This document shows, in pieces, positions 14,605-20,138 of a DNA stretch of 64,000 bases. The number at the start of each line of letters is the position of its first letter. The first letter of the stretch is position 1. The stretch lies in the NCBI GenBank assembly GCA_963667175.2, contig CAXXXF010000015.1, positions 512,001-576,000 of the forward strand. The letters run 5' to 3'. The position numbers were made by a program, and so were the translations under genes. Origin of the DNA: Candidatus Latescibacterota bacterium. GTDB lineage: Bacteria; Latescibacterota; UBA2968; GCA-2709665. The notes beneath the pieces are model-generated. The model saw only the letters and a list, made by a program, of their open reading frames with translations. It was not told the origin of the DNA and searched no databases.

Positions 14605-15143
14605 ATGGAGGCAGACTTATAGTCTATGGTGACGTGATGTGCGCGTAGATCTAGTCCCGATATACTGGGAATTTGCAGCCTTGTACCGCTGCGAAAAATG
14701 CGGAATTTACACCTTCAGTCGCACAGTTTCTCTGTATATACAGTAAACTAACGAATGGCCAAACACGAATGACAGGTCCGGCTAGCCTGTTTGTTCGGTG
14801 AAATTTGTAGTACTTGAGTCAGGTCTCCTGATGGGAACGCTCAATTGGGGCATGTTTTTATCGACACAATCACGCTCTTACAACAACACGCCTTGGCGGT
14901 CTGAGGCGAAGCCTCGTTAGATCACGCGGTTTCCAAAGTGTACATCGGCGCCGCCGTGATCGGCGGAAGTTTGGATTTAGAGGAAGGCGCCTTTTATCTT
15001 TTTGCGGGGCGAGGAGGCGGCCGGTTTTGTTATATACAGGTATGAATTGGAATGTCGGCTGTTTCGCGAGAACCAACGGAAATATCTCTAAACATGTTAG
15101 AGTCTTACAGTAAGACTTCAACGCAAGATGCGTAGAAGTTTGT

Positions 15144-16679
15144 TCATGCTGCTTGGATAGCGTTCCGGTTTGTGTGGTTGTCGTATAGTGTCAGTGAAGT
15201 CGCGAGGGTGACGTGTCCGGCCTGTGTGACGCGCCATCTTCTGGACCGAGGTATTTTAGCGATCAGGCCTCGGACGTGTAGACGTTTGAGGAGTCGGCTG
15301 ACGGCGTTGGCTTGTCGTCGTCGCTGGTCGAGGGTTCTGGGTTGTTTGAAGAGGTGTTTTCGGATGTCCCGATTGCGGAAGCCCATCAGGGCGTGTTCGC
15401 CTTTCAGGACGGCGGTGAAGAGGTCGAGGTCGCGGGTGTCGGCGGGATTGAAGCCCCGATAGGTCCGCCCCTTGTGCCTGCGTGGTCGGGCAAGTGCGGC
15501 GAGGCTGTGACGGCTCTTCCCGGTGTCTGGTGCTGCTGCCAGCGCCTGAAGATAGTGTTGGTTGGCCTTCAATGAGATCTCCCGATAGCGGTAGAGGTTG
15601 GCCACCCCTTTGGCCATGGGATACCAGCCCATCACGCGTTGTCCTTGCCGTATGCCCTGGCGGCGGACCTTGAACTGCCTTGGATGGTTGATCACTGTCT
15701 CTATGCGTAGTACGCGCCCGTGTTTGTCGTACATTTTTATCCAGTTCTCACACATCCGGTGTTTGACCCGTGCGCCGGGTTGGCGTTTGTTTTTGAAGTC
15801 CGTGAGGACTTCGCCCTGAAAGTTGCCGTGGAGTTTGCGTCCCAGGAAGGTCAGGATGTCCTGGGGAGAGAAGCACAGCACCGTATGTCTGAGCAGATTT
15901 TCATACAGCACCTTCAGGGCGTGGGGGCTTGTGAACATCACGTCGGTGGCGAACTCAGCCTGGTCAACGACCCAGTAATAGTCCATTCCCGAAAGCAGGT
16001 CTTTGAGCAGGGGGTTGACCCTGCGGGCAAGCCCGGAGAGAATGCGCGGCCAATTTTTCTCGACAAAACGATCGGCAAACCGTTGCGCCCGGGCCACGTC
16101 GTCGATCCATAGAAACGCGTTGTCTGCTTTGCGATAGGCAATGCCGTTTTTATCGAGCTTGCGCGCCAGGTATTCGTGGCCATTGAGACAGACCTGCACC
16201 ACCAGGGGGAACCACGACTGGATGCGGATATGCAGCAACCCGAACTCACGGTCGATATAGTAGAAATAGTAGCACAGGCACTTCCGCCGGGCGTTGCGCA
16301 GGCGAGGCCTTCCTTTCCCTGGAACCAGCTTGAAACTCTGACAGCCCTCCACGGCGCGGTACACACAGACCAGGCCGCGGGTGATCCCATCTCGTTGGGC
16401 GATGCGTCGCGCTTCCTCCTCTTTCCTGACGGTGTTGCGGTCGAGATAGAGGAACGGGCGCTTGTGCCTGCTCGCCATCGCCTCCGCGTGGGCTTTGATC
16501 GTTTTGGAATGCATCGTCACAAAACGCTTGAAGTCCTTCAACAAAAAACCCTGATTACCCATGAAACGCTCCATCGCATCGCCAAATCCCAACGGCAGGT
16601 ACCCCTTGAACAGAACCCGATCAAAACACGATACCACGCCACTGATTTTTTCATTATATTGGTCCACGAAGTCGTTCAC
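15144..16679 (-). CDS. Putative transposase/replication-initiator-like protein with C-terminal winged helix (full copy)
   Basis: GVVSCFDRVLFKG, QAEFATDVMF, IKMYDK..VLRIET, C-terminal SRLLKRLHVRGLIAKIPRSRRWRVT. GTG start after AAGGAGG. Confidence 0.7.
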   Translation of the reverse strand: MNDFVDQYNEKISGVVSCFDRVLFKGYLPLGFGDAMERFMGNQGFLLKDFKRFVTMHSKTIKAHAEAMASRHKRPFLYLDRNTVRKEEEARRIAQRDGITRGLVCVYRAVEGCQSFKLVPGKGRPRLRNARRKCLCYYFYYIDREFGLLHIRIQSWFPLVVQVCLNGHEYLARKLDKNGIAYRKADNAFLWIDDVARAQRFADRFVEKNWPRILSGLARRVNPLLKDLLSGMDYYWVVDQAEFATDVMFTSPHALKVLYENLLRHTVLCFSPQDILTFLGRKLHGNFQGEVLTDFKNKRQPGARVKHRMCENWIKMYDKHGRVLRIETVINHPRQFKVRRQGIRQGQRVMGWYPMAKGVANLYRYREISLKANQHYLQALAAAPDTGKSRHSLAALARPRRHKGRTYRGFNPADTRDLDLFTAVLKGEHALMGFRNRDIRKHLFKQPRTLDQRRRQANAVSRLLKRLHVRGLIAKIPRSRRWRVTQAGHVTLATSLTLYDNHTNRNAIQAA

Positions 16680-16740
16680 GGCGTTCCTCCTTGGATTGAT
16701 GGCGGTCGGGACCACCATCATAACGGACGAACGCCGCTTT

Positions 16741-18054
16741 TCATACCACAAAACAACCTGCCGCTTCAATACCACACTTCAGGACGGCGGTGAAGAGGTC
16801 GAGGTCGCGGGTGTCGGCGGGATTGAAGCCCCGATAGGTCCGCCCCTTGTGCCTGCGTGGTCGGGCAAGTGCGGCGAGGCTGTGACGGCTCTTCCCGGTG
16901 TCTGGTGCTGCTGCCAGCGCCTGAAGATAGTGTTGGTTGGCCTTCAATGAGATCTCCCGATAGCGGTAGAGGTTGGCCACCCCTTTGGCCATGGGATACC
17001 AGCCCATCACGCGTTGTCCTTGCCGTATGCCCTGGCGGCGGACCTTGAACTGCCTTGGATGGTTGATCACTGTCTCTATGCGTAGTACGCGCCCGTGTTT
17101 GTCGTACATTTTTATCCAGTTCTCACACATCCGGTGTTTGACCCGTGCGCCGGGTTGGCGTTTGTTTTTGAAGTCCGTGAGGACTTCGCCCTGAAAGTTG
17201 CCGTGGAGTTTGCGTCCCAGGAAGGTCAGGATGTCCTGGGGAGAGAAGCACAGCACCGTATGTCTGAGCAGATTTTCATACAGCACCTTCAGGGCGTGGG
17301 GGCTTGTGAACATCACGTCGGTGGCGAACTCAGCCTGGTCAACGACCCAGTAATAGTCCATTCCCGAAAGCAGGTCTTTGAGCAGGGGGTTGACCCTGCG
17401 GGCAAGCCCGGAGAGAATGCGCGGCCAATTTTTCTCGACAAAACGATCGGCAAACCGTTGCGCCCGGGCCACGTCGTCGATCCATAGAAACGCGTTGTCT
17501 GCTTTGCGATAGGCAATGCCGTTTTTATCGAGCTTGCGCGCCAGGTATTCGTGGCCATTGAGACAGACCTGCACCACCAGGGGGAACCACGACTGGATGC
17601 GGATATGCAGCAACCCGAACTCACGGTCGATATAGTAGAAATAGTAGCACAGGCACTTCCGCCGGGCGTTGCGCAGGCGAGGCCTTCCTTTCCCTGGAAC
17701 CAGCTTGAAACTCTGACAGCCCTCCACGGCGCGGTACACACAGACCAGGCCGCGGGTGATCCCATCTCGTTGGGCGATGCGTCGCGCTTCCTCCTCTTTC
17801 CTGACGGTGTTGCGGTCGAGATAGAGGAACGGGCGCTTGTGCCTGCTCGCCATCGCCTCCGCGTGGGCTTTGATCGTTTTGGAATGCATCGTCACAAAAC
17901 GCTTGAAGTCCTTCAACAAAAAACCCTGATTACCCATGAAACGCTCCATCGCATCGCCAAATCCCAACGGCAGGTACCCCTTGAACAGAACCCGATCAAA
18001 ACACGATACCACGCCACTGATTTTTTCATTATATTGGTCCACGAAGTCGTTCAC
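16741..18054 (-). pseudogene. 3'-truncated duplicate of the same gene (lacks the wHTH)
   Basis: Same protein up to DLFTAVLK, then reads out of frame into the next copy (CGIEAAGCFVV*). Confidence 0.8.
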
Positions 18055-18317
18055 GGCGTTCCTCCTTGGATTGATGGCGGTCGGGACCACCATCATAACG
18101 GACGAACGCCGCTTTTCATACCACAAAACAACCTGCCGCTTCAATACCACACTTTTTGGTTGCGGCTGAGCAAAGCGAAGCCGCCTTAGGAGTTCAAGCA
18201 ACAAGAGCCGCTGTTCCTAGCCGCTCAAGGTATTATTCGGACCCGGCACGAATTGCCGTATCTGTTCGATATTACAACGGTTAGGTAACATCTCAAATCA
18301 GTTAGAAATGGACGCGC

Positions 18318-19376
18318 TTGGACATATTTAAGGAAGTTAAACCGGTTGAGCTTAGGCGTCTTCCTGATCGACACGACCTAGCACACGCTGTCGCGTTCTT
18401 CTTCCACGACGAACTCGCGCGCCTTGTAGTGGAACTAGAGAGGGCAGACTCATTGTCCGTTTCGTTCCAACTGAGAGAGGGGGAATTGGAAGAACTCGAT
18501 GGCCTTGTTGGGGACGAATTGTTCCAATGGCTCGTCAGCACAAATAGGGCGGATGTCGCCGATGAATTGACGTATCGTGAACTCACTGTCGCCGTATTGT
18601 CTGATGCTTGCCATTTTTTGTGTGAGTCCCTACTTGCAAGTGGCAAAGGGAAGCTCGCCGTAGCCTATGCTCTCCTTCGCAAGCCGTTCAAAGAGAGCCT
18701 CCTTCTGCTCGAGTGGCTCTGCGGTTCACAGGAGGAATTCCTGCTGAGGTTCAGCGGAAAATCCGTTGACACCTACGTACTCAACCGTCTGCCAAAGGAA
18801 GAGCGGCTGGAGATCATTCGGGCCGCCGCTAGAAATGTGGATCTTCCTGGTATCGACGAGAAATTGTTGTGGTTGGTTCGATATTCCAAGGAGTACCACA
18901 ACAGCCTTGAGACTTTGTGGACCAAGGCTACACATTTGGTCACATCGGTAAAAGCGTCGGCTACCGAACCCAGCAATCTAAACTTTGTATTCTCCCGGGA
19001 ATCTGCCATTGATGATCAGTGGGATCACTACTACTCGATCGTCCCTCTTATCCTTCGGTACTTCGTTGGGGTAGCTGAACACGTCGCTTCTCGATTCGTC
19101 GCGTGGGATGACAAACATCGTTCCACTCAGCTTTTTCTTCGAGACTTGGCTTTCATGCGTTTTGCCACCCGGCCGGGTGGTTCAGAAAACCTCAATGTGG
19201 ACTCTGATTCCCTCTTCACAGATCTGGCGACGATGGGCTTTCAGTGTACGGAATGCCTCGACACCGTGAACATCGGTGGTGATGGAGTCGACCGGCTGTG
19301 GTTGCGATCAGAAGTGAAGTGCCGTAATTGTGGTCATGAATACAGCGCCTGGGACTTCATGGGTGGTGCCAACTAG
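18318..19376 (+). CDS. Hypothetical protein, helical (possibly HEPN-like) with C-terminal Zn ribbon
   Basis: AYALLRKPFKE motif; CTEC...CRNC; lower-GC accessory gene. Confidence 0.65.
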   Translation: MDIFKEVKPVELRRLPDRHDLAHAVAFFFHDELARLVVELERADSLSVSFQLREGELEELDGLVGDELFQWLVSTNRADVADELTYRELTVAVLSDACHFLCESLLASGKGKLAVAYALLRKPFKESLLLLEWLCGSQEEFLLRFSGKSVDTYVLNRLPKEERLEIIRAAARNVDLPGIDEKLLWLVRYSKEYHNSLETLWTKATHLVTSVKASATEPSNLNFVFSRESAIDDQWDHYYSIVPLILRYFVGVAEHVASRFVAWDDKHRSTQLFLRDLAFMRFATRPGGSENLNVDSDSLFTDLATMGFQCTECLDTVNIGGDGVDRLWLRSEVKCRNCGHEYSAWDFMGGAN

Positions 19377-19723
19377 GAGACTAGCACCTAGGTTGCGTGC
19401 ACGGCGTACCCTCGAATATAGTCTTACTGCTGCTTCCGAAGGCAGCGTCCTCCGACCCAACCGACCGAATAAAGACCAGCATCTGAGCGTAAATTGTAAT
19501 CGCGAAGAGTGGGTAACTTGGGGTGGGGTGGATAGAGGAGGTGTCTACCCTGAGAGCCTTCGCCGACCCTTCTTCAGTTCTTCGTGAAGCACAGGTATAG
19601 TGTCTCGATGCAGATTGGCTTACCAGAAGTCGGTTTGGAGATTTCTCGTGTTTCGAGCAGCCTATATTTCTCGTAGTTCAGAAAGTGTTCGATTAGAGGG
19701 CGAATGGATAAACCCAAGGAGGG

Positions 19724-19924
19724 ATGATGAGGTATAAAATCGCGCTTCACAAATCCGAAGAAGGCTATAGTGTCTCCGTACCCGGCCTGCCTGGTTGCTG
19801 GTCGCAGGGAGCCACAGAAGTTGACGCGATTGCAAACATCGAGGCGGCCATACGCGAGTATCTTGAAGTTGTTGACAAATTGCTGGACAATGTAGAAGTA
19901 CGAGAAATCGAGCTGACGGTATAG
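19724..19924 (+). CDS. hicB: HicB-like antitoxin (UPF0150)
   Basis: EEGYSVSVPGLPGCWSQGAT..DAIANIEAAI. Confidence 0.88.
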   Translation: MMRYKIALHKSEEGYSVSVPGLPGCWSQGATEVDAIANIEAAIREYLEVVDKLLDNVEVREIELTV

Positions 19925-19925
19925 C

Positions 19926-20138
19926 ATGCCGAGACTGCCAGGAGTAAACCATTTGGATGCAGTCCGTGCATTAGAGAAAGCAGGATTTTACCTGGCACGC
20001 CAAAGCAAGCACGTAGTTATGACAGATGGCGTGCGCATTCTGACAATCCCGCGAAACAACCCTGTGAATGCCTTTACGATGGGAGGAATCGTCAGGGACG
20101 CGGGATTATCTATTGAGGAATTTCGCAAGCTCTTGTGA
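19926..20138 (+). CDS. hicA: HicA toxin
   Basis: VRALEKAGF...RQSKHVVM...TIPR....AFTMGGIVRDAGL. Confidence 0.88.
   Translation: MPRLPGVNHLDAVRALEKAGFYLARQSKHVVMTDGVRILTIPRNNPVNAFTMGGIVRDAGLSIEEFRKLL

Follow-up and report, generated by a model that had tools for sequence, protein, structure and literature searches.

The transposases known from bacteria belong to only a few catalytic classes, and the HUH lineage extends from plasmid Rep proteins to IS91, IS200 and Helitrons. Another group of nickases, Rep_trans (PF02486) together with MOBT, comprises pT181 RepC/RepD, RepSTK1, filamentous-phage initiators and the relaxases of integrative and conjugative elements; Rep_trans proteins nick DNA site-specifically, forming a 5′-phosphotyrosine link, and start rolling-circle replication. 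In the available portion of Carr 2016 (PMC4797284), TBP is given as the sole structural neighbor of Rep_trans; the metal ligands are D46, D142 and E214, each on a separate strand, the nucleophile is Y191, R189 and K193 are required for religation, and R140, A144, D146 and R212 are conserved. The carriers of Rep_trans are listed as plasmids, filamentous phages and conjugative transposons, with no insertion sequence (IS) among them, in the accessible part of PMC13107129. Our literature search, which left most subscription journals, supplements and ISfinder outside its reach, turned up no paper on a transposase of Rep_trans type or TBP fold. Here, we analyzed a window of 64,000 nucleotides from a Candidatus Latescibacterota bacterium (contig CAXXXF010000015.1, positions 512,001 to 576,000, of assembly GCA_963667175.2), in which a mobile element occupies positions 15097 to 18185. 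We read this element as a copy of a previously unclassified IS that carries a secondary duplication and is moved by a putative tyrosine nickase, a reading to which we assign a probability of about 0.65.

The element is multicopy and mobile. The genome (18 contigs, 5.5 Mb) holds 11 loci at 91 to 100% identity, all of which have both ends save one cut by a contig end; eight carry an intact ORF (open reading frame), and three are broken, two by frame breaks and one by the contig end. Eight short elements of 220 to 294 bp also have both ends (e.g. C11:43188-43455, C12:11947-12166, C3:244075-244293 and C5:14009-14245), and about 15 further diverged short repeats in the same genome begin with the left hairpin, a structure common to all 11 loci and to the short derivatives. 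The short elements are probably nonautonomous derivatives that keep only the ends, which argues for ends acting in cis and a protein acting in trans. A match was found in eight of 41 related genomes (this one included); full-length copies were confined to this genome, G007 (11 copies) and G009 (one copy), the others holding relics or distant relatives. Such patchy presence among relatives is typical of an IS. Mobility follows from the 11 loci, the short derivatives with the same ends, this distribution and two empty sites.

The empty sites define how the element inserts. Every copy shares 35 nt beyond the repeat unit of the window on the gene-upstream side, including the left hairpin, which makes the canonical element 1714 bp long and places its left end at window position 18185. 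Each copy is preceded by CTAA (usually CCTAA) and terminates in CTCTAA, which puts a CTAA at either boundary. On contig C4, a duplicate of the flanks of the C18 copy forms a paralogous empty site, with one CTAA between the same flanks; the orthologous site of the C4 copy, empty in the congener G012, has one CCTAG. The element therefore adds its own length only, one CTAA being the target and the other belonging to the element. The left CTAA was taken as the target because the last base of the left pentanucleotide varies, being A or G among near-identical copies of one subfamily in G007 and differing also among the short derivatives in this genome, while the right end is constant (all six G007 copies compared terminate in CTCTAA). 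Insertion takes place immediately 3′ of a CCTAR pentanucleotide, without target duplication. For the copy in the window no empty site came to light, its flank 18191-19400 lacking a counterpart in five congeners; the flank at locus L003 is itself repetitive.

From the common ends and the empty sites, cleavage was placed after CCTAA (18186-18190) and after CTCTAA (15097-15102). Both putative cleavage motifs lie on the sense strand of the gene in the same orientation, which fits a single-strand mechanism. The first-pass annotation of this DNA had proposed an unclassified mobile element family with hairpins at both ends and neither terminal inverted repeats nor target-site duplications, and had suggested aligning homologous loci at their ends and looking for empty sites. 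Shared ends and two empty sites were indeed found, and the family stands. The hairpins lie where they had been drawn, each folding about two standard deviations better than shuffled sequences: the left (arms 18179-18184 and 18162-18167) at −9.0 kcal/mol (z −1.9), the right pair (15101-15117 and 15115-15139) at −8.8 kcal/mol (z −2.4). The element showed no terminal inverted repeats; the statement on target duplication needs qualifying, given the CTAA at either boundary. On its left side the proposed boundary missed the element end, which lies beyond the start of the repeat unit.

The same layout recurs in other phyla. A search of GTDB species genomes with a 17-sequence alignment (a 93-sequence one being too diverse) gave 572 candidate stretches, 504 of which encode a relative; 80 related loci were kept, from Latescibacterota, Planctomycetota, Acidobacteriota, Gammaproteobacteria, Gemmatimonadota, Chloroflexota, Armatimonadota, Verrucomicrobiota, Myxococcota, Mycobacterium and others. 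Eight further multicopy sets (Planctomycetota, Gemmatimonadales and one congener), with proteins 46 to 49% identical (84% in the congener), have this layout over 1680 to 2085 bp: a flank ending in a CCTAA-like sequence, one base, a G+C stem of 5 to 6 bp with a loop of 3 to 11 nt, an A/C-rich box, the gene, a G+C hairpin, and about 20 nt with CTAA as their last bases. Loci L070 and L073, which share their flanks too, were excluded when ends were compared. The multicopy sets of other phyla have a hairpin of different stem sequence at the position of right-end hairpin 1. Eight of the nine multicopy sets, that of this genome included, terminate in CTAA. The exception, a Gemmatimonadales metagenome-assembled genome (L101, L102), has a CATA-type motif at both the left flank and the right end; target and right end thus change together. 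Repeats of 240 to 370 bp surround the element at L101, and the L090-L094 subfamily of a Planctomycetaceae metagenome-assembled genome, 2085 bp long, has about 520 nt between left hairpin and gene, room for a small gene or RNA.

Left ends were compared by eye at 30 loci, 36 having been collected and four dropped without a pattern match and two as spurious. The preceding pentanucleotide was CCTAA in nine, CCTAG in nine and a close variant in 12, position 4 being A in all 30, position 3 being T in 29, and position 5 being A in 15 and G in 12. Within the left stem, compensatory changes occur at two pairs: pair 2 is T-A for C-G in five of the 30 and pair 5 is G-C for C-G in another count of five, with no broken stem; as the loci are related, these changes do not amount to 10 independent events. 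The T-A form of pair 2 occurs in three different loop and stem contexts.

The ORF extends from 16775 to 15144 on the minus strand. Its likely start is a GTG at 16679-16677, which gives 511 residues; a Shine–Dalgarno-type site (16686-16692) lies 6 nt before it, and the start column holds Met in at least 90% of 93 homologues. At least 4555 relatives were counted among 8000 candidates scored in a 90%-clustered collection, and most are called hypothetical; in a 50%-clustered library, 7502 representatives matched at E≤1e-3 and 787 at E≤1e-30. None of the 120 homologues listed carries a Pfam domain, and the nearest clusters in the ESM Atlas are unnamed hypothetical proteins. Homologues in annotated plasmid records are named hypothetical protein or ArsR family regulator, and others elsewhere 'predicted transcriptional regulator'. 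The first 400 residues have no match in Pfam, NCBIfam or PHROGs. NCBIfam returned no family at E≤10, so that no curated transposase model (DDE, serine or tyrosine-recombinase IS) matched, and neither Pfam nor NCBIfam gave a match to Y1_Tnp or the HUH Y2 transposase. The C-terminal 120 residues form a MarR/HxlR-type winged helix, and 39 of the 93 members match the haloarchaeal winged-helix model PF25213. Two single-copy distant paralogues lie elsewhere in the genome (C2:20514-21797 and C4:390071-391249), 28 to 31% identical, with frames of 512 and 542 residues.

The predicted fold connects this protein to Rep_trans. AlphaFold2, run with the 93-sequence alignment, gave a model with pLDDT 93.5 for the whole protein and pLDDT 96.1 and pTM 0.93 for residues 14 to 400. 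In fold searches, the predicted core showed a TBP-like double β-sheet; only TBPs and two solved Rep_trans initiators (seven rows) matched over both halves of the core, lower rows covering one half, and Foldseek gave its top probabilities (0.89-0.94) to 4cij. Residues are numbered here from an upstream ATG at 16721; numbers counted from the GTG are lower by 14. At the positions of the RepC catalytic residues, a reading of the RepC sequence by index having borne out the residues listed in Carr 2016, the family has D34 (93 of 93 members; RepC D46), E256 (92; D142), A258 (75, with S in 17; A144), D260 (91; D146), K329 (91; R189), Y331 (92; Y191), K333 (88; K193), R339 (93; R212) and E341 (93; E214), with Q254 in the place of R140. 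These residues match Rep_trans in order and spacing and all fall on predicted β-strands, K329/Y331/K333 and R339/E341 on adjacent ones. We conclude that the protein probably works like a Rep_trans nickase and shares ancestry with that family.

A further Tyr pair, Y152 and Y154 (window 16218-16226), forms a Y-x-Y motif in the N-terminal half of the core and is invariant (93 of 93). We know of no Rep_trans counterpart for it. None is found among the catalytic residues given in the available portion of Carr 2016 (PMC4797284). Speculatively, the pair could supply a second nucleophile. Taken with the covarying target and right-end motifs, it hints at a one-protein, two-tyrosine cut-and-join reaction, convergent with the IS91 and phiX174-type enzymes.

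Much of what the first-pass annotation had said of the protein was recovered: the 511-residue ORF from the GTG at 16679, the C-terminal winged helix (by profile searches) and a core free of recognizable DDE, HUH or tyrosine-recombinase motifs, for which Pfam and NCBIfam held no match. Its proposed structural check, AlphaFold with Foldseek, yielded the TBP-like double sheet matching Rep_trans initiators. The label Rep_trans-like thus holds for the predicted fold and the catalytic motifs, and fails for membership of the Pfam family; judged by sequence profiles, the protein does not belong to Rep_trans as Pfam defines it.

Comparison with the described systems places the element between several of them. 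Like Rep_trans proteins, its product has a predicted TBP-like double-sheet core; strands bearing an N-terminal Asp, acidic-x-A-x-D, basic-x-Y-x-K and R-x-E in the same order and spacing; and a separate DNA-binding domain after the core; and it is associated with hairpin-bearing DNA sites. It differs in having no detectable sequence homology to them, a core of about 390 residues with long helical insertions rather than about 200 to 270, an acidic strand that starts with Q rather than R, E rather than D as a putative metal ligand, and the extra invariant Y-x-Y pair; moreover, the element is a multicopy chromosomal IS and not a plasmid, phage or conjugative element. With IS200/IS605 (IS608, ISDra2), it shares the absence of inverted repeats and target duplication, subterminal hairpins that differ between left and right, insertion 3′ of a defined short motif left outside the element, cleavage sites on one strand, and short hairpin-bearing nonautonomous derivatives. 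Unlike those elements, it encodes a transposase of 511 residues with a TBP-like predicted fold and neither an HUH motif nor a Y1_Tnp match, it has no tnpB gene, its target and right-end cleavage sequences are nearly the same, and it shows no clear strand bias in one complete genome (G007).

IS91/ISCR (HUH Y2) elements resemble it in their single gene of about 1.5 kb, the absence of target duplication, one end abutting a specific tetranucleotide, and a presumed replicative single-strand mechanism. The enzyme folds are, however, unrelated, and IS91 has short imperfect inverted repeats and one-ended products with flanking DNA, neither of which was seen here. A TBP-like catalytic domain with a winged helix behind it is also the architecture of Rep-Arvir (DUF7845; PMC13107129, 2026), a deep branch of the Rep_trans-like superfamily, recognizable only by structure, as the present family probably is; unlike the element, Rep-Arvir belongs to archaeal virus and plasmid replicons. 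DUF7845 was not among the best 25 families listed for the element family.

We read the protein as representing a new transposase class that works like that of IS608 or IS91. In the mechanism we propose, the putative metal-dependent tyrosine nickase would act on one strand, the sense strand of its gene, cutting after the flanking CCTAR on the left and after CTAA on the right with formation of 5′-phosphotyrosine links. The right 3′-OH would be joined to the left 5′ end, releasing a single-stranded circle, and the donor would be resealed or recopied. Release could occur by excision, as for IS608, or by copy-out with strand displacement, as for rolling-circle plasmids and IS91; Rep_trans proteins couple to strand-displacement synthesis with PcrA. 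At another CCTAR the reaction would then run backward, with the enzyme positioned by the hairpins and the winged helix. The present data fit IS608-like and IS91-like logic alike. We lean somewhat toward the broader view that the element is the founding example of a new class, in which a TBP-fold, Rep_trans-like nickase would insert a single-stranded circle into CCTAR and which would be unrelated to the DDE, DEDD, HUH, serine and tyrosine-recombinase enzymes. The same leaning covers its extent: a very large family, with thousands of clusters at 50% identity across many bacterial phyla, that went unnoticed for want of a profile able to recognize it.

Several observations weigh against this interpretation. 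PF02486 matched neither the protein, nor any of the 93 members, nor the six-frame translation of the genome at E≤10. Alignment of the 93-sequence family to a 7-sequence Rep_trans alignment with hhalign gave a probability of 1.5 to 2.6% (3.5 to 4.9% for sub-ranges, E ~0.01), the latter alignment being small and shallow, drawn from plasmid records after a search for RepC homologues had returned only staphylococcal sequences at ≥86% identity; against pT181 RepC alone, the probability was 0.3. The best local alignments, nonsignificant, paired the strands of the tyrosine (RepC R189/Y191/K193), of R-x-E (R212/E214) and of the N-terminal Asp with their RepC counterparts. The family profile matched only the winged helix when run against all PDB sequences. 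D34, E256 and E341 lie on three separate predicted strands, and the putative three-dimensional equivalence of the motif residues to those of Rep_trans is one of strand position only. A 28-mer spanning the right-end-to-left-end junction expected of a circle had no match in the genome or the fetched loci. IS608 shows a replichore bias, inserting in an orientation set by the lagging-strand template; the 11 copies in G007, a complete genome, are four plus and seven minus and interleave with no clean replichore split, by a hand count in a single genome whose origin was not located.

The copy in the window differs from the canonical form by an internal duplication. Positions 15403-16779 recur without a mismatch at 16778-18154 (1377 nt, offset 1375, 2 nt of overlap), just as the first-pass annotation had described an exact direct repeat with 2-nt microhomology; an exact repeat of 1.4 kb rules out chance. 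The duplicated block runs from about 33 to 35 nt inside the left end to 306 nt short of the right end. The duplication was present in none of the other 10 loci of the genome and none of the 80 related loci. We read the tandem as a one-off rearrangement of the window copy and not a normal product of transposition. It may have arisen by template switching, by miscutting at look-alike sites within the element, or as an error of assembly. By eye, the internal breakpoint resembles the left-end boundary (the same nine bases with two 1-nt indels), the other breakpoint comes after an A run following CC, and both junction partners follow runs ending in AA and precede G; the resemblance to the left boundary was noted post hoc and carries little weight. 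One imaginable route is a miscut at such look-alike sites that would free a 1375-nt subcircle, reinserted at the same site. This would yield exactly the observed structure, as template switching or assembly error equally would. From a GTG at 18054 to a stop at 16741, the upstream repeat copy holds a truncated gene whose product would have about 437 residues (about 426 native and 11 junction-derived), and a translated search matched it to protein residues 1-440 at 100%; the product is missing most of the winged helix and, if made, might hinder the full-length one.

The first-pass annotation had taken the repeat for a head-to-tail, IS91-style one-ended product of rolling-circle transposition, its junction marking the nick or origin site. 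A Rep_trans-like protein and the capacity of rolling-circle systems to give tandem products speak for this, as does the sequence likeness at the breakpoints. We nevertheless regard it as highly improbable: the junction links a position inside the element to the interior of the left end, not right end to left end; the ends, and with them the cleavage, are put at CCTAA and CTCTAA, some 33 to 35 nt and 306 nt away, by all the other copies together with the empty sites and the short derivatives; one-ended read-through would take flanking DNA along rather than duplicate the 5′ part of the element; and no other partial tandem was seen among the other 10 loci of the genome or the 80 related loci. The duplication could instead be an assembly or chimeric-read artifact in a canonical 1714-bp copy, a possibility we take seriously while judging it unlikely. 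No difference separates the two repeat copies from each other or from two other loci (100% identity), the duplicated structure occurs here alone, and in four public runs containing the element no contig bridges 16778/16779, all contigs that reach this point running on into canonical sequence. These runs are not the source of the assembly, though, and hold only 0.18 to 0.36 of the sampled words of a 5.8-kb stretch (five runs, maximum 0.36), about the share expected of the element alone; they were taken not to contain this locus and to be silent on the junction. Resolution of 11 near-identical 1.7-kb copies in unique flanks suggests reads spanning 3.1 kb, and junctions with 2-nt microhomology are typical of real duplications too.

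The nature of the whole element admits other explanations. It might be an integrated small rolling-circle replicon, a plasmid- or satellite-like episome whose Rep serves for site-specific integration. A Rep_trans-like domain with a winged helix is the architecture of plasmid and viral initiators (including archaeal Rep-Arvir, in the available part of PMC13107129), and many homologues lie on contigs of 1.7 to 2 kb. We hold this to be improbable, given that a 1719-bp contig in run X1 spans the element from boundary to boundary and is not circularly permuted, that the right-to-left junction was not found in the genome or the loci, that many chromosomal copies with unique flanks and short derivatives exist, and that the element has no second gene and no recognizable double-strand origin. 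Alternatively, the protein would be a noncatalytic TBP-like/winged-helix DNA-binding regulator or accessory factor, with the enzyme encoded elsewhere. TBPs do score as high as Rep_trans in the fold search, and some homologues bear regulator names in their sources, which the winged helix alone accounts for; with the protein being the product of the sole gene of a 1.7-kb element conserved across phyla, and with little or no variation in a tyrosine, three carboxylates and the basic residues beside them, which occupy the Rep_trans catalytic positions, this seems very doubtful to us.

If the element is indeed an IS moved by a TBP-fold nickase, a rolling-circle nickase lineage other than HUH also gave rise to transposons, in parallel to the HUH lineage. 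It would account for thousands of genes now called hypothetical and many short unassembled metagenome contigs, annotation pipelines could mask a common repeat family, and a compact single-protein system for sequence-directed insertion of single-stranded DNA would become available for study. The features of the window copy are collected in Table 1.

Table 1. Positions of the element and its parts in the 64,000-nt window
Feature	Position	Strand	Remarks
Whole composite element	15097..18185	-	3089 bp, the canonical 1714 bp plus the internal 1375-bp duplication
Target pentanucleotide CCTAA abutting the left end	18186..18190	-	Host DNA, outside the element
Left-end hairpin	18162..18185	-	6-bp stem, 11-nt loop; begins 1 nt past the putative cleavage site
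Conserved A/C-rich box straight after the left hairpin	18155..18161	-	Same box in most of 30 left ends from other phyla; may serve a role such as winged-helix binding
Upstream copy of the duplicated segment	16778..18154	-	Truncated gene copy inside
Duplication junction	16778..16779		2-nt microhomology
Intact 511-residue putative transposase gene	15144..16679	-	Predicted TBP-like/Rep_trans-like core and C-terminal winged helix
Right-end hairpin 1	15115..15139	-	G+C-rich stem, lengthened by flanking pairs
Right-end hairpin 2	15101..15117	-	Overlaps hairpin 1; subfamily-specific, not conserved in other sets
Terminal hexamer CTCTAA, last bases of the element	15097..15102	-	End point of all copies

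The element is adjoined by a gene with a weak PD-(D/E)XK match on one side and a gene of unassigned function on the other, with a methyltransferase gene further along, beyond these immediate neighbors. The flank 18191-19400 has no counterpart in the five congeners searched, and the element thus sits in an accessory region. Genes for a HicB-like antitoxin (E 7e-10) and a HicA-like toxin (E 5e-6, narrowly short of the curated cutoff) lie at 19724-20138.

Other repeats accompany some of the copies. A repeat of about 1.26 kb lies 10 to 240 bp from the right end of two of them (L003:3419-4683 on contig C18, and C14:274547-275808); it has many copies in this genome, G007 and G002 and is probably another IS. 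A repeat of about 135 bp, present in dozens of copies in congeners, adjoins one element copy (L002:1357-1492, with matching places in G009 and G012).

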